From a virus, in the IMG/VR virus record IMGVR_UViG_3300045120_000051, positions 5,981 through 69,980 of that record: DNA of 64,000 nt. The stretch is one strand, 5' to 3'. Both the position numbers and the translations under genes were made by a program. Under the pieces are notes generated by a model. The model worked only from the letters and a program-made list of their open reading frames with translations, did no database searches and was not told the origin of the DNA. Shown one piece after another: positions 5,608 to 32,653 of this stretch. Position 1 is the first letter of the stretch; each line of letters begins with the position of its first letter.

Positions 5608-6134
5608 GCCTCTTGGACCTCATCGAGCAGGGCGATACAGAAGCGGTTGCCCCGCTCCTTGTGGTCACCATGTCGGGGGCCCCAATCGGCAAGGGCAGGC
5701 CCCGTTCCCGCATCGTTCGCCCCCGCAATGGCCCCCAATTCGTCAGTGTCTACACGGATGCCTCTACGAGGGCCTACGAGGCCCGCCTACGCGCTGCCGC
5801 GCTCCGGGCCATGCGAGGCCAGCCGCCGCTGGAAGGGCCACTGGCGGTCACCGTATGGGCTTACGTGGTCATTCCAGAGAGTTGGTCGCTCAAGAGGCAG
5901 AACGCCGTGGTGGGAGGCTATGCGCCCGGTCGTCCCGATCAGGACAATATCCATAAGCTGGTGCTCGATTCCTTCAATAGTTCCAAGAAAATGGGTCCCG
6001 GTGTCTGGCGTGACGACGCCCAAATCGTGGACGGCAGGACGATCAAGCTCTACGCCCGGCGCCGGCCTGGGCTCATCATCGAGGTCCGGCGTGCCGGCAC
6101 TCCGCCGACGCCATGGGCGGAGGATTATATATGA
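5604..6134 (+). CDS. rusA: RusA-family Holliday junction resolvase
   Basis: KGRPR, RPD.DN..K.VLD..N, G.W.DDAQIV motifs. Confidence 0.9.
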   Translation: MSLLDLIEQGDTEAVAPLLVVTMSGAPIGKGRPRSRIVRPRNGPQFVSVYTDASTRAYEARLRAAALRAMRGQPPLEGPLAVTVWAYVVIPESWSLKRQNAVVGGYAPGRPDQDNIHKLVLDSFNSSKKMGPGVWRDDAQIVDGRTIKLYARRRPGLIIEVRRAGTPPTPWAEDYI

Positions 6135-6331
6135 CCAGAGATCGCCGCGCAGGAACGACCACCAAGCAAGCGAAATTGCGCCGTGATGTGGCATTGGCGC
6201 GGAACGATTTCCGCTACCCTTCCGTGGAGCGGGAGGCCCCGGCAGGGGTAACGTCGATGCCTGTCAAGGCGGTGGATGCCGCTACCCGGAGGCTGATTGA
6301 CGAGGCGCTGGCGAGGATAAATGGCCGGTGA
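6131..6331 (+). CDS. Hypothetical protein
   Basis: ATGA overlap, RBS GGAGG. Confidence 0.55.
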   Translation: MTRDRRAGTTTKQAKLRRDVALARNDFRYPSVEREAPAGVTSMPVKAVDAATRRLIDEALARINGR

Positions 6332-6497
6332 CGCTACCCCTAGCGTCATCGAAATAAACCCTACCACATCTAGGGACTTGCACTTCTGCGTGTGAAGGCG
6401 CATAAACAGAAACCCCCGCCAATGAAGGCAGGGGTTCCGTTTGGGTCACCCGTTGAGGGACGGGTTCCGCAGGCGGACCACGGTGTATGAGGCACCA

Positions 6498-6791
6498 ATG
6501 GCTACCCACCAAATAGACAATATCCCAAGTTCGCGCAAGACCTCTGCCGGTCGCCGCCATGAACTGCGCCTGCCTACGGCAATCCACATCACTGAAGCCC
6601 GCAAGATCGCCGAAAGGATCGGCGCGGACCAAGTGATGGTGATTGCCTTCAGCCGGGACCATTATGCGGCAGTGAGTTACGGCAAGACCAAGGCTCTGTG
6701 CGCTGATGCTGGAAAATGGCTAGATCGAATCTGCGATAATTTGGCTGACGGCACGCTGCCGGCGCCAACGAAGTCTGTAGCGTCTGAGTAG
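6498..6791 (+). CDS. Hypothetical protein
   Basis: ATG with GAGG RBS, followed by terminator-like hairpin. Confidence 0.55.
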   Translation: MATHQIDNIPSSRKTSAGRRHELRLPTAIHITEARKIAERIGADQVMVIAFSRDHYAAVSYGKTKALCADAGKWLDRICDNLADGTLPAPTKSVASE

Positions 6792-25142: not shown

Positions 25143-26795
25143 GTGCCCAAACTCGTCATCAACATCATCACGCGCAACCGTCCCCACCTGATTGTGGAGA
25201 CGGTTGAGAATTTCTTGGCTCAGATGACGACCGCGGACTGCGGCCTCATGGTTTCTGTCGATGACGATGACGTAGCGACCATCAAAGCACTGGAGCCTTA
25301 CTGCGGGCGTCAACGGACCCACATTTCAATCCAGCCTCGCGAGGACGCTATTGGCGACAAGTGGTCCCGTAGTTTCCGTTCGTTTCCCGATGCCGGCGCG
25401 CACATGCTGGCCGCGGACTATGCGATCTGCAAGACCAAGGGCTTTGACAAGAAGATCATCGATGCAGTGGAGTTGCTGCCGGACAACATCGGGGTGATCG
25501 GCGGCAAGTTCTGCAATGCATCGTTTTCGGCGTTCCAGGTGGTGACGCGGGGGCTGGCGAGGCGCATGGGCTTCGTCTACCCGCCCTACTTTCCCTACTG
25601 GTTTGTTGATCATTGGGTTGACGATATCGCCCGGATGATCGGACGGCTGGTCTATGTGGACGTTGACATTGACGCCGTGTCTCGCAAGCCGCCGACGCAG
25701 GAAATGCGGGACTTGGTGTTTTGGTCTACGTTCTTTGATCTGTGCCGGGGGCGGCGGCACAAATGTGCTGAACGCATCCTTGATGATAGCGACACCAGGG
25801 TGTGGCTTAAGTCCATAATGGTCGGCAATTTCGAGATCACTGATGTCCGCTCCAAATGGATCAACGATTGCGTCCGTGCCAGTGCGGCTCATGTCGAGAA
25901 CGCCATTGGCGCTGGCCCTCCCGACGAACGCTATCTGCGCTCGCTGGACGCAGCCAAGGCCATGATCCCGGAACTTGTCCAGGAAATGAAGGATGCCGGC
26001 GAGGACGTGTCGGCATGGATACCGCGCATGACCACGAACGTATCGCCCATCCGCAAATCAACCGGACCTCAGATGAAAAAGATTTTGCTGTTTGTCCCAG
26101 CCTTTGGGCAGATGATGTCCTGCACCACGGTGTCAACCATTATCCAGTTGATGCAGGTTTTACCGTCCAAGGCCATCGCAGGAGGATTTGGGACGCTCTC
26201 CTACCCCGACATTGCCGAGATGAGGGACGCCGTGCTCTCCCGGTGGTACGACCACATGACGGACTACACGCATCTGCTATTTATCGATGCGGACATGGGC
26301 TTTGCCCCCGAATTGGTCCTGGACATGCTGTTGTTCGACCAGCCATTGGTCGGTGCGATCTACCGCAAGCGGATCGAGCCGCCGCAGTGGGCCGCCTCAG
26401 GGAGCGGAGGGCCTACGACAGCTAGGACGGGAGATTTTATTGAGGTCGATGGCCTCGGCATGGGTGTCTGCCTTATCCGCCGTGATGTGGTGACAACCAT
26501 GCTGGAAAAGATGCCAGAATTGTCTGACGACAAGATCGCCATGCTGTCGATCCGGGACCTCATGGACCCTGCGGCAACGCGGATTATTAGGGCATTTGAC
26601 CCGATTCAGGGTCCGTCTGGTCGTGTGTCGGAAGACCTCTCTTTCTGCCAGCGGTGGCGTGAGTGTGGTGGAACCGTTTGGGGTGCGATTGGGCATTCTG
26701 TTTCGCATGTTGGAATGTATGATTTTTGCGGGAGGTACGCGGATGTGGCAGATAAAGCCCCGATAGTGCCGCCCGCGTTGCAAGCTGCTGAGTGA
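25143..26795 (+). CDS. Double GT-A/GT2-like glycosyltransferase
   Basis: Domain 1: TRNRP, SVDDDD, WFVD.W. Domain 2: THLLFIDADM, G.G.CLIRRDV, SEDLSFC.RW..CGG. Confidence 0.85.
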   Translation: MPKLVINIITRNRPHLIVETVENFLAQMTTADCGLMVSVDDDDVATIKALEPYCGRQRTHISIQPREDAIGDKWSRSFRSFPDAGAHMLAADYAICKTKGFDKKIIDAVELLPDNIGVIGGKFCNASFSAFQVVTRGLARRMGFVYPPYFPYWFVDHWVDDIARMIGRLVYVDVDIDAVSRKPPTQEMRDLVFWSTFFDLCRGRRHKCAERILDDSDTRVWLKSIMVGNFEITDVRSKWINDCVRASAAHVENAIGAGPPDERYLRSLDAAKAMIPELVQEMKDAGEDVSAWIPRMTTNVSPIRKSTGPQMKKILLFVPAFGQMMSCTTVSTIIQLMQVLPSKAIAGGFGTLSYPDIAEMRDAVLSRWYDHMTDYTHLLFIDADMGFAPELVLDMLLFDQPLVGAIYRKRIEPPQWAASGSGGPTTARTGDFIEVDGLGMGVCLIRRDVVTTMLEKMPELSDDKIAMLSIRDLMDPAATRIIRAFDPIQGPSGRVSEDLSFCQRWRECGGTVWGAIGHSVSHVGMYDFCGRYADVADKAPIVPPALQAAE

Positions 26796-26815
26796 TGGTT
26801 TAGGATGTGATTTGC

Positions 26816-26875
26816 GGTAAGGCTCGCCTAGGTGGGGTCCGGCACGGTTGGGCGAGGCATGGTATGGCGAGGTTG
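26816..26875 (+). repeat. GGY-NN pentamer array 1 (12 units)
   Basis: ggtaa ggctc gccta ggtgg ggtcc ggcac ggttg ggcga ggcat ggtat ggcga ggttg. Confidence 0.9.
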
Positions 26876-26910
26876 CTTGACGTGACCTTGAATTGATGAT
26901 TGGCTATCCA

Positions 26911-27004
26911 AATCGCGGCGATCAACGCGATTCGAAACGCGGCACCATCGACAACTTCCCCGTCGTCCGGTGTCGCTGAAAAGTGACCCCTGATTCCGCG
27001 TTTC
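26911..27004 (+). ncRNA. Candidate structured RNA leader
   Basis: AATCGCG/CGCGATT hairpin; GAAACGCGG/CCGCGTTTC stem enclosing smaller hairpins. Confidence 0.4.
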
Positions 27005-27025
27005 CGGGCTTGATCGGCCGGGCGC

Positions 27026-27125
27026 GGGGGAGACCGTCTGCGGCGCGGCTTGGCATGTCATGGTGCGTGTCCGGTCGGGTAAGATTAGGCTTGGTATGGC
27101 AGGGTCTCCTTTCATCAAAAGGAGA
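27026..27125 (+). promoter_or_regulatory. GGY-NN array 2 (about 12 units) enclosed by a stem that competes with an RBS-sequestering hairpin
   Basis: GGAGACC (27029-35) pairs with GGTCTCC (27103-09); TCTCCTTT (27105-12) alternatively pairs with AAAGGAGA (27118-25). Confidence 0.7.
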
Positions 27126-27135
27126 GGACGATTAA

Positions 27136-27750
27136 ATGACTAAGACCTCAGCTAAGGTTGTTCATATCAGTGAACCGACTGATGGTGGCAATGAGACAAT
27201 CGAACACTCAGAGCCTTACGCCGTCGCCGTAACTGTCGAAGGCTCCGCCGATTTTCTGTTTCATCGATGGAATCCGGAAGCCGTCGATGAGAAGGCCAAA
27301 GCCGCGAAGAACTCGAAGGGCAAAAAAACCGATAACATCGAGAGTTACGTTTATCGGCTTGACAACGGTGAACTCGCCATCCCCGGCGAATATATGCGGG
27401 GTAGTATCATCAATGCCGCCAAGTTCCGGCAAGACCCACGTTCACCGCGCAAGTCTGCGGCCGATTTGTTCAAGGCTGCAATCGTCGTCACGACGCCGCT
27501 TGCAGCGCTTGGCGTGAGTGATTGGGACTATCTCGACAAGCGCCGCGCGATGGTCCAACGGCAGGGCATCAACCGCGTGCGGCCGGCAATGCGCGCCGGC
27601 TGGACGTGCGAGTTCCATCTGTTGGTGATGCTGCCGGAATACGTTGATCGCGGCGCGTTGCGCGAGACAATCGAAAGCGCGGGGCGGCTCATCGGCCTTG
27701 GTGATTTCCGGCCGACATTTGGCCGGTTTGGCATCGTCAACTTCGAATAA
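27136..27750 (+). CDS. Stand-alone RAMP/Cas7-like RNA-binding protein
   Basis: N-terminal strand VTVEG.A.FL.H, IPG..MRGSI..AA, C-terminal Gly-rich loop AG..IGLGDFRP.FGRF; strong RBS; flanked by pentamer arrays. Confidence 0.8.
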   Translation: MTKTSAKVVHISEPTDGGNETIEHSEPYAVAVTVEGSADFLFHRWNPEAVDEKAKAAKNSKGKKTDNIESYVYRLDNGELAIPGEYMRGSIINAAKFRQDPRSPRKSAADLFKAAIVVTTPLAALGVSDWDYLDKRRAMVQRQGINRVRPAMRAGWTCEFHLLVMLPEYVDRGALRETIESAGRLIGLGDFRPTFGRFGIVNFE

Positions 27751-27758
27751 GGAGATCT

Positions 27759-28006
27759 GGTCGGGTGAGGCTGGGTGTGGCGAGGTCGGCCCTGGTCCGG
27801 CGTGGCATGGTGAGGCTAGGTTTGGTGAGGACGGGCGCGGCATGGCGCGGCAGGGCTAGGTCTGGCAAGGCTAGGTATGGTGAGGTACGGGCCGAAGGGC
27901 CGGTGTGGTACGGTCGGGTTCGGTGAGGCAAGGCTGGCTTCGGTTCGGTAGGCTCTGGTATGCTATGGTAAGGTGGGGCGAGATGGGGCTTGCTGAGGTG
28001 AGGATT
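27759..28006 (+). ncRNA. GGY-NN pentamer arrays 3a (26 units, 27759-27888) and 3b (21 units, 27902-28006), putative guide RNAs
   Basis: Strict 5-nt phase within each block; blocks separated by GGCC-GAAG-GGCC mini-hairpin; intergenic. Confidence 0.75.
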
Positions 28007-28011
28007 TAATC

Positions 28012-29397
28012 TTGAGGACTGTTTTATCACATGGTGTGTTTGATCCAATGCACATTGGGCATGTATTGCATTTGATCGAGGCACGGGCACAAGGCGACAG
28101 GCTTGTCGTAAGCGTTACAGCCGATGAGTTTGTTGCTAAAGGTCCAGATAGGCCCATCTTTAAGGGGGCTGAACGCGCGCAGGCATTGCGGGCTTTAAGT
28201 TGCGTTGATGACGTGATCATTAGTGAGTCTTATGATGCTGTCGATGTAATCAACAAGGTTAGGCCAAATCTTTTTGTTAAGGGTGTCGATTATAAAGATG
28301 TAAACGATGCTGCATTACAGCGAGAAATAGCCGCTGTGGAGGCTCACGGAGGTCGTTTCTATACCACGCATTCTGATAGATGGTCATCGTCCCGCATTGT
28401 AAACGGCGCGAGATTTGATGATGAAGCGATGGCTTATCTTGAGGGCGCCAGGGCGCGAGGGTTTTCTGACCGGATTTTGGCGGCATTCGAACGTGCAGAC
28501 AAGCTGAAAATCGCGTTCGTGGGAGAAACGATCATTGACCGCTACCACTACGTTTCCCCGCTGGGGAAGCCGGTGAAGGAATTCTGCCTTGCCACGGTCG
28601 AGGCCAAGGAATCGGAGGAGTTCCTAGGCGGCGTCATTGCGGCCAGCAAACACGCGGAATGGCCCCATGTGAACGTGGTGACCAGCGGTCAGTTCATCCG
28701 CAAGACGCGGTATGTGGACGTGGCGTTTAACCGGAAGCTGTTCGAGGTCTATTCTGAGCGCGAGATTGAGTTGAACGAAAAGCAGAGGACGGCGTTCCGC
28801 AGTGATCTAGTCGATGCTTTGAAGGCGGTTGATGCTGTTGTCGTGCTGGATTTTGGGCATGGACTCCTAACATCCGAAGAGCGTAGCTTCATTAGATCGG
28901 CTGGGTTCAGGAAGACAAAAAAGAAACAAAAGCCCATATTTACTGCCATTAACTCTCAATCCAACACTGCCAATTTTGGGTTTAATCCAGTTACGTTGCA
29001 TCCTGGCGCAAATTTTGTCTGTGTTGACGATCCAGAGGCGAGGCTTGCTACCGGGATGCAGAATGATCCAATGGGCGACGTTCTAACGTGCCTATCCGAC
29101 AAGATGTGCTGTTACCAGTTCATTGTCACGCACGGTCGGAATGGATGTACCTCCTTCACGAGATACAAGAATCCAGCCGTTCACATCCCCGCCTTCGCCA
29201 CCAACGGCATTGACACCATGGGGGCGGGAGACGCATTTCTGGCAGTGACAGCGCCGCTTGTTGCCGCGGGGCTTGGGCTGGAAGAGGCAGGCTTTGTGGG
29301 CAACGTGGCCGGCGCCATCAAGGTTGGCATCCTCGGCCATCGTCGCCATGTTGGTCGGCAGGAACTTATCCAGAGCGTGGAGGCGCTGCTTAAATGA
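28012..29397 (+). CDS. RfaE/HldE-like bifunctional nucleotidyltransferase + PfkB sugar kinase
   Basis: GVFD.MHIGH, V.VTAD..V.KG..RP, KG.DY, SSS.I; GETIID.Y, DFGHG, DTMGAGDAF. Confidence 0.9.
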   Translation: MRTVLSHGVFDPMHIGHVLHLIEARAQGDRLVVSVTADEFVAKGPDRPIFKGAERAQALRALSCVDDVIISESYDAVDVINKVRPNLFVKGVDYKDVNDAALQREIAAVEAHGGRFYTTHSDRWSSSRIVNGARFDDEAMAYLEGARARGFSDRILAAFERADKLKIAFVGETIIDRYHYVSPLGKPVKEFCLATVEAKESEEFLGGVIAASKHAEWPHVNVVTSGQFIRKTRYVDVAFNRKLFEVYSEREIELNEKQRTAFRSDLVDALKAVDAVVVLDFGHGLLTSEERSFIRSAGFRKTKKKQKPIFTAINSQSNTANFGFNPVTLHPGANFVCVDDPEARLATGMQNDPMGDVLTCLSDKMCCYQFIVTHGRNGCTSFTRYKNPAVHIPAFATNGIDTMGAGDAFLAVTAPLVAAGLGLEEAGFVGNVAGAIKVGILGHRRHVGRQELIQSVEALLK

Positions 29398-29579
29398 CGG
29401 ACAAGGATTGGGAAATACCGAGCCCTCGCAAGTACCTTGCTATAAAATACTCAACCCCGCCTGGAACTTGCAAGTGTGGTGAGTGCCAATTGGTGCCGCC
29501 CGAAATGCTGATGGTATGGGATGCTGAAATCCAGAGCCTCAAAGATCAGGTTAAACACCTGAGAATTATAAAACCATGA
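29394..29579 (+). CDS. Hypothetical protein
   Basis: ATGA-coupled on both sides. Confidence 0.55.
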   Translation: MTDKDWEIPSPRKYLAIKYSTPPGTCKCGECQLVPPEMLMVWDAEIQSLKDQVKHLRIIKP

Positions 29580-29794
29580 CCGACCTCCCCCCTCTCCACG
29601 TCATCGTCAAGTTCGGGAAGGATATCCCGCTATCCATCCAAGGGCCGGCGTTGCTGGAGATGGAGCGGCATCTGCGCAAGCTGGCGGCGGAGACGGTGTG
29701 CGGGCCCCTGTGGATTGAAGTCTTTAAGGAGGCCAAGGGGGATGATAGTAAGTTGCGCAGCGCCATGACCGAAAAGCAAAGATCAAAACTATGA
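29576..29794 (+). CDS. Hypothetical protein
   Basis: ATGA-coupled on both sides. Confidence 0.6.
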   Translation: MTDLPPLHVIVKFGKDIPLSIQGPALLEMERHLRKLAAETVCGPLWIEVFKEAKGDDSKLRSAMTEKQRSKL

Positions 29795-30954
29795 CCTCGC
29801 CCATGCCCGATTTTGTCGATCACGTTCTCGGCGTTGCTCCCGATTCCCCGTCCGTTCACAATCTTCAATTGGATGGGACAAAAATAGCTTGGTATCGAGA
29901 TCGCGTTGAGGCATGGGCTCGGGGCGAGCGCATCGCTCCGATCACGATGGACGTGGCCTGGACTCGCAAGTGCCAAGCAGCGTGCGGATTCTGCTATGCG
30001 AGTCTACAGTCCAGTGAAGGCGGCATCGATGTAACCCGGCAGGAAGCATTCGACTTCTTGGAAGACGCCGCAGCCATCGGCGTCAAGGGCGTCAGCCTCA
30101 TAAGCGACGGGGAAAGCACTGGCGTCCCCTACTATGCCGAATCGATCAAGTACGGTGCGTCCCTTGGTCTGCAAATGGGGATCAGTTCAAACGGGGTGAC
30201 GCTCACCCGAGATGTTCTGGAGGACATCCTGCCGTCGCTGAGTTACCTCCGGTACAATTTCAGCGGTGGCAAACGCAAGCGTTACGCTGAGATCATGGGG
30301 TTGAAGCAGATTTGGTTTGACCGCGTGGTGTCAAGCGTCAAGACCTCGATGGAGATCAAACGGCGCGACAACCTCCCTTGCACGGTCAACATGCAATTTG
30401 TCGTCCGTCCTGTAGACGGGGACCAGATTGTACCGTTTGCTAAACTCGCCGCCGAAATCCGCCCTGATTACGGAATCCTGAAGCACTGTTCCGATAGCTC
30501 GACCAATGACCTCGGTGTGGATTACCGAAAGTACAGCGAATTATTCCCGTTGTTTCAGGAGGCCGAAGGCTACTCGGACAAGGATTTTCGCATTGCGGTC
30601 AAGTGGTCGCGTATCCAGGACGAGGGCAAGCGAGATTACCAACGATGCTATGGGCCTCCGTTCATCCTGCAAATGTCCGGCAATGGCTTGATTGCTCCTT
30701 GCGGGCAGAAGTTCAATTCCAAGTACCAGAAATTCCACATGGGCCGGTTGTCGGAGATGCGTTTCCGGGACATCTTCAAGAGTGACCGCTACTGGGACAT
30801 CATCAACTATCTCGCCAGCGAGGACTTCGACGCGCAGAAGGATTGCGGCGAGAACTGCTTGCAGACAAACAGCAACTCGTGGCTGAATCGCTATGTGAAC
30901 GGGCAAGCGCAGTTTGCGACAACGCCCCCACCCCCGCAGATCGGTTTTCTGTGA
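29791..30954 (+). CDS. Radical SAM protein with SPASM/twitch-like domain
   Basis: CQAACGFC; C.GP......GNG...PC; C..NC. Confidence 0.9.
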   Translation: MTSPMPDFVDHVLGVAPDSPSVHNLQLDGTKIAWYRDRVEAWARGERIAPITMDVAWTRKCQAACGFCYASLQSSEGGIDVTRQEAFDFLEDAAAIGVKGVSLISDGESTGVPYYAESIKYGASLGLQMGISSNGVTLTRDVLEDILPSLSYLRYNFSGGKRKRYAEIMGLKQIWFDRVVSSVKTSMEIKRRDNLPCTVNMQFVVRPVDGDQIVPFAKLAAEIRPDYGILKHCSDSSTNDLGVDYRKYSELFPLFQEAEGYSDKDFRIAVKWSRIQDEGKRDYQRCYGPPFILQMSGNGLIAPCGQKFNSKYQKFHMGRLSEMRFRDIFKSDRYWDIINYLASEDFDAQKDCGENCLQTNSNSWLNRYVNGQAQFATTPPPPQIGFL

Positions 30955-31721
30955 CATTCGACATCGCCGCTGCCAAGGAACGGTGCCGGCGCTATCGGCG
31001 GCGCATTCTGGACATCTCGCAGCAGGTTTCGGCGCTTCACATTGCCAGCGCCTATTCATGCACCGAGATTGTGGATTGCATCTACCACGGTCTGATGCGA
31101 CCGCAGGAGACGTTCATCTTGTCCAAGGGACACGCCGGCATCATGCAGTATGTGGTACTGGAAGATCTCCGGGTGCTCAACAGAAGTGACCTTGAGGCTT
31201 ATTGCACCCGAAATGGGGTGCTTGGAACGCATCCCGACTACGGCAATCCGGGGATTGCTGCCTCGACAGGCTCCCTCGGTCACGGCCTTGGGATGGCGGT
31301 GGGAATGGCTCTGGCCAACCGTTCGGAGCGGGTTTACGTGGTTCTCAGCGATGGGGAGTTGCAGGAGGGATCGACGTGGGAAGCCATCTTGCAGGCGTCG
31401 TCGCTACGGTTGAACAATCTCACGGTCTTTGTGGACAACAACGACTTCCAGAGTTTGCAGCGAACGTCGGTCACTCACCCATCGTTTTATCCATTGGCTG
31501 CTAAATTTGTGGCCTTCGATTGGGGTGTGGTTGAAGTTGAGGACGGCCACGATAGTTGGGCCTTATACAAGGAATCTAAGCACGGGCATCTTTTCAGGCC
31601 CTTTGTGGTGATTGCGAAAACGACCAAGGGGAAGGGCGTCAGCTTCATGGAGAACATTCCCATCTGGCACTACAGGTCGCCCAATGTGGAGGAATACGCC
31701 AAGGCGATAGCCGAGCTATGA
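30951..31721 (+). CDS. Transketolase N-terminal (TPP-binding) subunit
   Basis: LSKGHA, TGSLGHGL..AVG, SDGELQEG.TWEA, T.KGKGVSFME..WH; GTG start overlaps upstream TGA. Confidence 0.92.
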   Translation: MTFDIAAAKERCRRYRRRILDISQQVSALHIASAYSCTEIVDCIYHGLMRPQETFILSKGHAGIMQYVVLEDLRVLNRSDLEAYCTRNGVLGTHPDYGNPGIAASTGSLGHGLGMAVGMALANRSERVYVVLSDGELQEGSTWEAILQASSLRLNNLTVFVDNNDFQSLQRTSVTHPSFYPLAAKFVAFDWGVVEVEDGHDSWALYKESKHGHLFRPFVVIAKTTKGKGVSFMENIPIWHYRSPNVEEYAKAIAEL

Positions 31722-32653
31722 GGAATGTATTCGCTGAGACGCTTTTCGAGGAAGCTGTTGGTAATCCTAAGATTTTCGTCGTGGCTGCGGATATTTCTCC
31801 GTCTGGAAGCATGGCTAAGTTTGGCCTGGAATACCCTGATCGCGTCATCAATGTTGGGGTGGCAGAGCAATCCATGATCGGGATCTGCGCCGGTCTGGCC
31901 ATCAAGGGGTGCCAGCCGTTCGCCTATACGATAGCGACGTTCAGTCTTTACCGGCCGTTCGAGATGGTGCGAGATGATCTTTGTTATCAGAACTTGCCAG
32001 TGACCGTCGTGGGGATGGGGGCGGGTGCGATCTACTCGACGCTGGGGGGAACACATCAGGCGATTGAGGACATCGCGATTGCGAGCGCGTTGCCCAACAT
32101 GCAGATCATAGCTCCGTGCGATCCGCTGGAATGTGCCGAGGCCGTGCGCTGGTGTGCCCGGCAAAGGAGTGGGCCGGTTTACCTGCGGCTTGGGAAGTCT
32201 GGGGAGTCCACCCTAACCAAGGATGCGGCGTCGTGGCAATTTGGCAAGATCAGGAAAATCCGTGCTGGTAGCGATATCTGCATTCTGACTTACGGGGTAA
32301 TCGCGGCAATGGCTGTCAATGTGGCGGATAGTCTAACGGGCTTGGGGTACTCTGTCGCCGTTGTGTCGGTTCACACGATGAAACCGTTGGATAGGCGTGG
32401 TATCGCGTCAATTTTGACCAACTACCAGCATGTGGTTGTCATCGAGGAACACGTTCCGCAGGGAGGTCTTGCGGCTCAAACCAAGCAGATTGCTTGGGAA
32501 TGCAAGGCGCGGTGCCGGCTGAACACGTTCACCTTGCAGGATGAATTCATCCATAACTATGGCACTCGTGACGAATTTCTCGCCGCGCATGGGCTTTCGG
32601 TTGAATGGATATCGGCGGCGGTTGCTCTTGACGCGCGTGCATTTTCGGCCTAA
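31718..32653 (+). CDS. Transketolase C-terminal (pyrimidine-binding) subunit
   Basis: NVGVAEQSMIG..AGLA, G.THQAIED, GPVYLRL, KPLD, EEH...GGL. Confidence 0.92.
   Translation: MRNVFAETLFEEAVGNPKIFVVAADISPSGSMAKFGLEYPDRVINVGVAEQSMIGICAGLAIKGCQPFAYTIATFSLYRPFEMVRDDLCYQNLPVTVVGMGAGAIYSTLGGTHQAIEDIAIASALPNMQIIAPCDPLECAEAVRWCARQRSGPVYLRLGKSGESTLTKDAASWQFGKIRKIRAGSDICILTYGVIAAMAVNVADSLTGLGYSVAVVSVHTMKPLDRRGIASILTNYQHVVVIEEHVPQGGLAAQTKQIAWECKARCRLNTFTLQDEFIHNYGTRDEFLAAHGLSVEWISAAVALDARAFSA

Follow-up and report, generated by a model that had tools for sequence, protein, structure and literature searches.

VIPR (for Viral Interference Programmable Repeat) systems are presented in 2026 preprints as RNA-guided DNA-silencing systems older than CRISPR. 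According to the preprint text, a RAMP protein, Vipr, polymerises at one protomer per repeat on guide RNAs (vrRNAs) of 9 to 16 YNNGG units, the protein holds the GGY of each repeat while the NN dinucleotides read DNA with a one-base skip, and rival phages and satellites are silenced as a result (10.64898/2026.04.26.720920, 10.64898/2026.04.26.720927, 10.64898/2026.10.15.759431, 10.64898/2026.10.21.760802). Here we analysed a vipr locus in a 64,000-nucleotide stretch of DNA (the window), positions 5,981 to 69,980 of IMG/VR record IMGVR_UViG_3300045120_000051. That virus record is complete, comprises 69,980 bases and has direct terminal repeats; a portal-like open reading frame (ORF) lies in the window. 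An initial annotation of the sequence had proposed that a two-state RNA switch connects a pentamer array to the ribosome-binding site (RBS) of a RAMP-like gene. Our analyses indicate that three RNA strands around this array form a toggle that is conserved in related loci and that, as modelled, probably gates vipr translation, downstream of a structured leader RNA.

We identify the locus as a phage VIPR system, a system of an already-known kind, on the grounds of the protein and its key residues, of the repeats and of the context. A profile built from 28 homologues of the 204-aa protein matched PDB entry 36pp_D, 'SUSP1 Vipr protein' (E 3.9e-11, residues 30-199), the sole solved structure matched. 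The best Foldseek matches of its AlphaFold2 model (pLDDT 85.9) were Csm3/Cas7 RAMPs (E ~1e-6, TM ~0.5), so that the RAMP-like assignment was borne out. The G-loop GLGDFRPTFGRF aligned with GVGDWRPRFGRF of the characterised Vipr. In SUSP1 Vipr, the residues described as contacting GGY are H17, R138, D177, W178 and R179 (10.64898/2026.04.26.720927). Their counterparts in the alignment are H43, R149, D190, F191 and R192, with the aromatic character kept where W178 is replaced by F191; among the 28 homologues, H43, R149 and R192 never vary, and conservation of D190 is at least 90%. In PHROGs the protein matched only phrog_4652, of unknown function, and no Pfam family was matched.

The pentamer array, which had been taken as a protein-binding one, is indeed of that type by its repeats, corresponding to a YNNGG vrRNA array of the VIPR system. 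In the window's repeat logo GG is present in 43 of 43 units and Y in 40, with NN mixed, and 10 of the 13 YNNGG units of the array located between the leader and vipr (array 2) contain GGY. Period-5 clusters of in-phase GG are found at vipr (runs at 26831-72, 27088-104 and 27759-27933; 6, 20 and 8 repeats). Within the 64-kb window, runs of at least five in-phase repeats occur only beside vipr, and four isolated runs of four occur elsewhere. Among 39 first-round related loci, the arrays flank the vipr homologues and mostly begin just past the stop codon; they are on the gene's own strand in 38 loci and on the opposite strand in none. Relatives of vipr are common in viral contigs (38 loci).

Strand A (GGGGGAGACC) and strand B (GGTCTCCTTT), proposed to close array 2 through a long-range stem, are both present on either side of the array (Table 1), and their complementarity is real, with seven Watson-Crick and three G-U pairs. 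Strand B also contains TCTCCTTT (27105-12), which forms a perfect 8-bp hairpin with AAAGGAGA (27118-25), closed by the 5-nt loop CATCA, over the Shine-Dalgarno (SD) sequence of vipr. The two folds are mutually exclusive, as the initial annotation had stated, because both pairings need positions 27105-12. The hairpin on its own is weak evidence, because the window has no excess of perfect 8-bp hairpins (9, versus 7.7 +/- 2.7 in 20 dinucleotide shuffles). That frequency, together with a fold z-score of only -1.55 for 27000-27150, would fit chance complementarity in a G-rich intergenic region. However, both pairings recur in all six loci that share the window's layout despite their differing sequences, which places them above chance, and we regard a fortuitous origin as disfavoured and highly improbable.

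The layout in question (leader, array, strand B, SD) is common to six loci with five distinct sequences: the window, L002 (= L003, L042), L010 (= L041), L052, L055 and L040. Covariation in homologous loci had been named as a check on the switch, and both pairings are kept in all six loci, with compensatory changes. In five loci the A:B stem reads GGAGACC/GGTCTCC; L040 has GGAGGCT/AGCTTCC, in which both partners of two pairs have changed. The duplex of L040 with its own partner has an energy of -15.8 kcal/mol, compared with -11.4 to -13.6 for its strand A with foreign B strands and -8.5 to -9.8 for other A strands with its strand B. The arms of the B:SD hairpin are TCTCCTTT/AAAGGAGA, CTCCAT/ATGGAG, TCTCC/GGAGA, TCTCCG/CGGAGA and TCCTTC/GAAGGA; the loop-proximal pairs vary each time and complementarity is kept. 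Cognate B:SD duplexes are best or tied for best in four of the six rows, and those of L002 and L010 are within 0.3 kcal/mol of the best. These comparisons used per-locus duplexes instead of the MAFFT alignment of the six junctions (A4), which misaligned the B/SD part. In five of the six loci, the first three bases of strand B are also the last GGY of the array.

We then considered the RNA upstream of the array. A subset of the relatives shows conservation over the roughly 130 nt that precede strand A. A covariance model of this leader built from 10 relatives matched 25 of 100 sources (22 distinct sequences) and none of 58 more distant loci. A loose pattern scan of viral contigs listed 80 loci, of which the model matched eight, all of them re-finds of known contigs; it also matched all 10 new contigs obtained with a tighter pattern. 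The metagenome relatives considered are the 80 listed of 502 reported. In the model-fitted alignment 98.5% of the cells are paired, versus 39-48% with slid partners, and 19 of 28 leader pairs have changes on both sides; the observed values were reached by none of 500 shuffles.

H2, the basal helix of the leader, conceals an SD-like GGGGGAG: its 3' strand is the SD-like CGGGGGAG, and the pairs involved covary, one of them being CG in 10 sequences and UA in 10. P2 is present in all 22 distinct sequences, with many compensatory variants. P2 duplexes have a mean energy of -12.4 kcal/mol for cognate strands versus -8.2 for non-cognate ones, and 8% of foreign partners match the pairing of a strand's own partner. 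RNAalifold overlooked P2 and offered an invariant 4-bp helix that conflicts with it. P2 crosses H2 and both covary, which implies either a pseudoknot or alternative states. Rfam gave no match at gathering thresholds over the 64 kb, and at E <= 10 over 26700-28100 it gave three chance-level matches, none in the leader. Irrespective of the toggle, we take the leader RNA to be a candidate new structured cis-regulator of phages, and a well-supported one.

Most leader loci use the GGAG at the leader's 3' end as the SD of the gene that follows, whose ATG comes 5-9 nt later. In relatives without array 2, the GGAG of strand A is the real SD of vipr, hidden by H2. The genes that follow the leader differ. 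In the 10 new contigs, the leader precedes vipr in three, a vipr remnant and then arrays in one (L285), arrays in one (L286), a GIY-YIG/NUMOD3 endonuclease in one (Pfam E 6.4e-11), small ORFs with a hydrophobic N terminus in three, and a 252-aa ORF in one. The carriers with a non-vipr ORF directly after the leader are L284 (61-881, homing-endonuclease-like), L287, L288, L290 and L289. No vipr was found in the stretches of L284 and L287-L290 examined, and the 252-aa ORF has no family; the three small ORFs, directly downstream of the leader, have signal-peptide-like N termini. Since non-vipr ORFs also follow it, the leader is a portable module and not vipr specific.

TTGAC is found 36-39 nt upstream of helix P1 in 14 of 31 element rows, and in 8 of the 31 an array runs straight into the leader element. 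In the window the -10 is weak, and a consensus promoter scan called no promoter at the TTGACG site. The fixed spacing of TTGAC in the relatives suggests that the leader is promoter proximal. As a separate observation, the leader in L285 (603-900) is followed only by a short remnant of the vipr N terminus, then arrays, then an unrelated ORF; this looks like a vipr deletion in which the guide arrays were retained, and it resembles the 'solo vrRNA' phages described in the October 2026 preprint.

The energetics of the competing pairings were assessed by folding region 26905-27160. The minimum free energy (MFE) structure predicted by RNAfold (-100.3 kcal/mol) has H2 formed and the SD paired with strand B in a shifted register; the hairpin register described above is 2.7 kcal/mol over the MFE. 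RNAfold therefore upheld one part of the proposed switch, the occlusion of the SD by strand B in one register or the other, and not the other part, as the A:B stem is not the predicted ground state in the window and the SD is already hidden without protein. Forcing A:B costs 0.0 kcal/mol in L052, in which A:B is the MFE fold and the SD arm is 0.95 unpaired, 1.5 in L055, 3.2 in L040, 5.1 in L002 and 6.2 in L010. When the duplexes are taken in isolation, A:B (-14 to -16 kcal/mol) outweighs B:SD (-8 to -10.5 kcal/mol). It is therefore loop closure and competition with H2 that set the balance between them. The B:SD hairpin is the predicted ground state in five of the six loci. When the array and its last GGY were made unavailable for pairing, all six loci folded to H2 plus the B:SD hairpin, an outcome that the constraint itself partly forces.

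Those results bear on the mechanism put forward in the initial annotation, a titration of Vipr in which A:B closes the array loop and leaves the SD open until excess protein assembles along the array, disrupts A:B and frees B to cover the SD, as pure negative autoregulation. That coating would break a long-range stem is physically plausible and reasonable, because the published filament is a rigid helix with one protomer per repeat (10.64898/2026.04.26.720927). The overlap of B with the last GGY, the response of all six loci to blocking of the array, with the reservation just given, and the open SD of L052 are all as this mechanism would have them, and an effector array beside its own RBS is common in the family: in 25 of 36 relatives the upstream array stops no more than 33 nt short of the ATG, and that of L062 extends into the SD/start codon. 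However, the SD is hidden without protein in the window, L002 and L010, where A:B lies 5 to 9 kcal/mol above the ground state, A is locked in the covarying H2, and the same leader masks the SDs of genes unrelated to Vipr. No mention of autoregulation was found in the searched text of two VIPR preprints, nor of vrRNA biogenesis or a terminator in the preprint text searched, which is also silent on the control of vipr expression. One preprint has no mention of Shine-Dalgarno in the text covered, and of its three uses of 'translation' the passages shown concern the genetic-code table for ORF calling. We consider titration by Vipr as the whole mechanism unlikely, and the initial interpretation taken as a whole is partly supported.

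It might also be that nothing switches. The leader-borne vrRNA would then end in the B:SD hairpin as a constitutive 3' cap or tail, or the hairpin would serve mRNA stability or processing; it would just happen to overlap the RBS, and A:B would be a by-product of A being an old SD and B an anti-SD. Characterised vrRNAs are described as requiring a structured 3' tail (10.64898/2026.04.26.720920, 10.64898/2026.10.15.759431), and the hairpin, which is the predicted ground state in all but one of the loci, is the sole structure 3' of array 2. In addition, SD/anti-SD identity by itself accounts for four of the seven A:B pairs. A simple tail would nevertheless not call for A:B to run 3 bp past the SD core, at positions that are co-changed in L040, or for both pairings to be lost together, as they are in L082; the downstream arrays, moreover, have no such hairpin and show just short T-rich spacers. 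We judge this explanation improbable as well. If the toggle were inert, the locus would be one more VIPR member.

The reading that we favour, with a probability of roughly 0.45, is a combined relay, in which the A/B/SD toggle gates vipr translation, its input arriving via the leader and Vipr loading possibly acting as a second one. The interval is the distal portion of the 5' leader of vipr, and array 2 is a guide (vrRNA) array embedded there. In the resting RNA, B would pair with the vipr SD and translation would be throttled. H2 would normally hold A; opening of the base of H2 would free A, which would capture B and release the SD, such that a closed leader helix would mean OFF and an open one ON. 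Because A itself is the H2-hidden SD in the 'direct' loci, those in which the leader ends in the SD, the A/B/SD relay would preserve this ancestral polarity, and it would keep the gene under leader control after insertion of the array between leader and gene. Vipr loading on the array would remove the GGT of B and hold A and B ~150 Å apart, a distance computed from the published pitch of ~72 Å per six subunits, and could thus only reinforce the OFF state. The trigger may be the state of the leader, Vipr loading, or both. The leader may be the primary input rather than Vipr, because A is committed to the covarying H2 and because the leader masks non-vipr SDs too.

We compared predicted SD accessibility across classes of loci. 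The median probability that the SD is unpaired is 0.00 in the 'direct' loci (n = 11) and 0.08 in the loci with leader and array (n = 6), compared with 0.50 in array-only relatives (n = 27) and 0.44 for the other SD-bearing ORFs of the window (n = 19). In the type II reference phage HY02, the tail of the last upstream vrRNA stops ~70 nt before the SD. Among array-only relatives (e.g., L048, L051, L058, L009, L016, L061, L071 and L080), the last upstream repeat usually ends 19-33 nt before the ATG, and a T-run followed by TAAC or CAAC and an A-rich stretch separates it from the SD.

Several of our results weigh against the relay. In the folds just described, SD masking is a feature of this clade and not a rule of VIPR, as the SD is not tied to the array flanks in the array-only relatives or in HY02. 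In the window, forcing A:B costs 8.9 kcal/mol (7 bp) or 12.9 kcal/mol (10 bp), with a pair probability of ~2e-6, and the ON state therefore needs some input. L082 carries the leader and a 26-repeat array, and neither pairing is present there. Only five distinct sequences have the layout, and the covariation of A:B comes from a single lineage; its changes could have passed through G-U intermediates with no need for compensation. The match between A and B is also partly built in, as B has to carry CTCC to pair with the SD, it takes its GGT from the closing repeat of the array, and A used to be an SD. Lastly, the leader alignment (A3) was fitted to the covariance model, which flatters its pair counts.

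A broader scenario extends beyond the window. Soil phages would carry a portable, promoter-proximal, pseudoknotted leader of ~120 nt, a new cis-regulatory class that masks the SD of any gene following it (vipr, a GIY-YIG endonuclease, small secreted ORFs); in one lineage, a guide array would have been inserted, the A/B/SD relay would have arisen and preserved control by the leader, and translation of the effector would have become sensitive to guide loading. We hold this full sequence of events to be rather unlikely. If true, a single transcript would couple guide-RNA occupancy to effector synthesis in cis.

Table 1. Features of the vipr locus and its leader, in window coordinates
Feature	Position	Strand	Remarks
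Array 1, upstream vrRNA-type YNNGG	26796..26876	+	directly after the stop codon of the upstream ORF; 11 in-phase GGY between 26816 and 26871
TTGACG, -35-like hexamer	26877..26882	+	~37 nt upstream of leader helix P1
Structured leader RNA	26913..27032	+	~120 nt with strong covariation; helices P1, P2, H2, H3
Leader helices	P1 26913-17/26926-30; P2 26934-42/26996-27004; H2 26955-71/27017-32; H3 26972-76/26983-87		
Strand A GGGGGAGACC	27026..27035	+	SD-like 3' end of leader; overlaps H2 at 27026-32; complementary to B
Array 2, guide array within vipr leader	27039..27104	+	13 YNNGG units; 1-nt register slip at 27069
Strand B GGTCTCCTTT, anti-SD	27103..27112	+	its GGT is the last GGY of the array
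SD-occluding hairpin	27105..27125	+	8 bp, loop CATCA; shifted register 27103-13/27122-33 in the MFE
vipr Shine-Dalgarno region AAAGGAGAGG	27118..27127	+	P(unpaired) ~0 for 27122-27
vipr	27136..27750	+	204-aa RAMP protein of the Vipr family; ATG at 27136
Downstream vrRNA arrays	27759..28003	+	44 GGY, not all in one register; 20 in-phase repeats in one run (18-20 by two counts)

The surroundings of the locus and its relatives provided further observations. A glycosyltransferase-like ORF (25143-26795) lies upstream of the VIPR locus, and an HldE-like kinase/adenylyltransferase is the neighbour on the other side. Right after the locus, 28012-32653 holds a sugar-nucleotide-type gene set with an HldE-like cytidylyltransferase/PfkB kinase fusion, a radical SAM/SPASM protein and a split transketolase (N-terminal and pyrimidine/C-terminal halves). 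Downstream arrays in the window (27990-28011) and in L010 (3740-3990) are broken by short GAGGAT-plus-T-run spacers, not by a long conserved tail; these spacers may be vrRNA ends or terminators. In Phage DSL-LC04 (L001, OR003939.1), a Vipr homologue of 59% identity at 6001-6618 is annotated as a 'helix-turn-helix transcriptional regulator', and the array upstream of it closes, ahead of the SD, with a terminator-like hairpin and T-run. Vipr homologues are also found on bacterial contigs of metagenome-assembled genomes, probably in prophages (L128/L129, L156/L157 and many Phycisphaerae loci). Some of these assemblies hold two copies, and none of these loci has the leader RNA.

Other assignments were tried and rejected. 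TRAP-like rings, single-stranded-DNA-annealing proteins, G-quadruplex tracts and DNA-level iterons were considered for the GG-period-5 arrays and dropped on the Vipr match. The only Rfam match to a CRISPR family, inside the coding sequence, scored 17.8 bits against a gathering score of 39, and a hammerhead or other known ribozyme in the leader had no Rfam support. A terminator role was discarded for the SD hairpin, which is not followed by a U-run and at which a terminator scan found none. No tRNAs were found in the window.

Compared with type II VIPR, as known from Escherichia phage SUSP1 and a P. fulva prophage, the locus shares a small RAMP protein with the GGY-contact residues, same-strand flanking YNNGG arrays, one of them in the leader, and the phage context. 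The arrays are also alike in having no self-targets under the 1-nt skip rule, as the preprint authors report for theirs: the best matches of the window's arrays to their own phage (17/24, 23/40 etc.) were not above those of shuffled guides. The window protein is, however, distant, being matched at E 3.9e-11 by the profile only, with a weak single-sequence tblastn against Felixounavirus-type coliphages (E ~2e-3, C-terminal third only). The downstream arrays differ in being long and nearly continuous, with a run spanning 20 repeats, and in lacking the repeated 40-nt pseudoknot tail. No vap-like neighbour was recognised beside vipr, nor any DNA-binding or nuclease one; the vap accessory gene is typical of VIPR and not strictly required. 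The leader RNA, the SD masking and the A/B/SD toggle are not described in the VIPR preprint text searched. With the backbone proteins of class 1 CRISPR, Cas7/Csm3, Vipr shares the fold and periodic polymerisation on a guide, but its register is 5 nt instead of 6 nt, and the window locus has no CRISPR repeats.

As a regulatory arrangement, the locus resembles several well-known leaders. Phage translational operators include the replicase hairpin bound by MS2 coat protein and the leaders of T4 gp32 and RegA, bound by their own products. Here, too, a phage protein that is abundant and binds nucleic acid would hold translation down by way of RNA at the RBS; those proteins, however, bind the operator directly, whereas the array and the RBS hairpin are separate in our locus and joined by strand competition only. 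Riboswitch platforms with SD, anti-SD and anti-anti-SD strands offer a similar three-strand competition and a structured 5' domain, portable between genes, that ends in an SD-hiding helix. The leader differs from them in that no ligand or aptamer class was found for it and no Rfam family matched it at E <= 10.

The trp leader of Bacillus subtilis is bound by TRAP, a tryptophan-responsive ring protein whose recognition sites are (G/U)AG triplets; its binding favours a hairpin that blocks the SD at trpE. The vipr leader differs in that its protein is unrelated, its repeats are guide RNAs with a second job, and its protein dependence is hypothetical. The likeness is that a multimeric protein sits on leader repeats ~5 nt apart, where its occupancy would pick between competing structures, one of which hides the SD. 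A guide array placed in the leader of its own effector and tied to the RBS by strand competition would be a first regulatory layer for VIPR and a compact, naturally evolved means of dosing an RNA-guided effector relative to its guides. The system is thus of an already-known kind, and its putative regulatory layer is a new variant.

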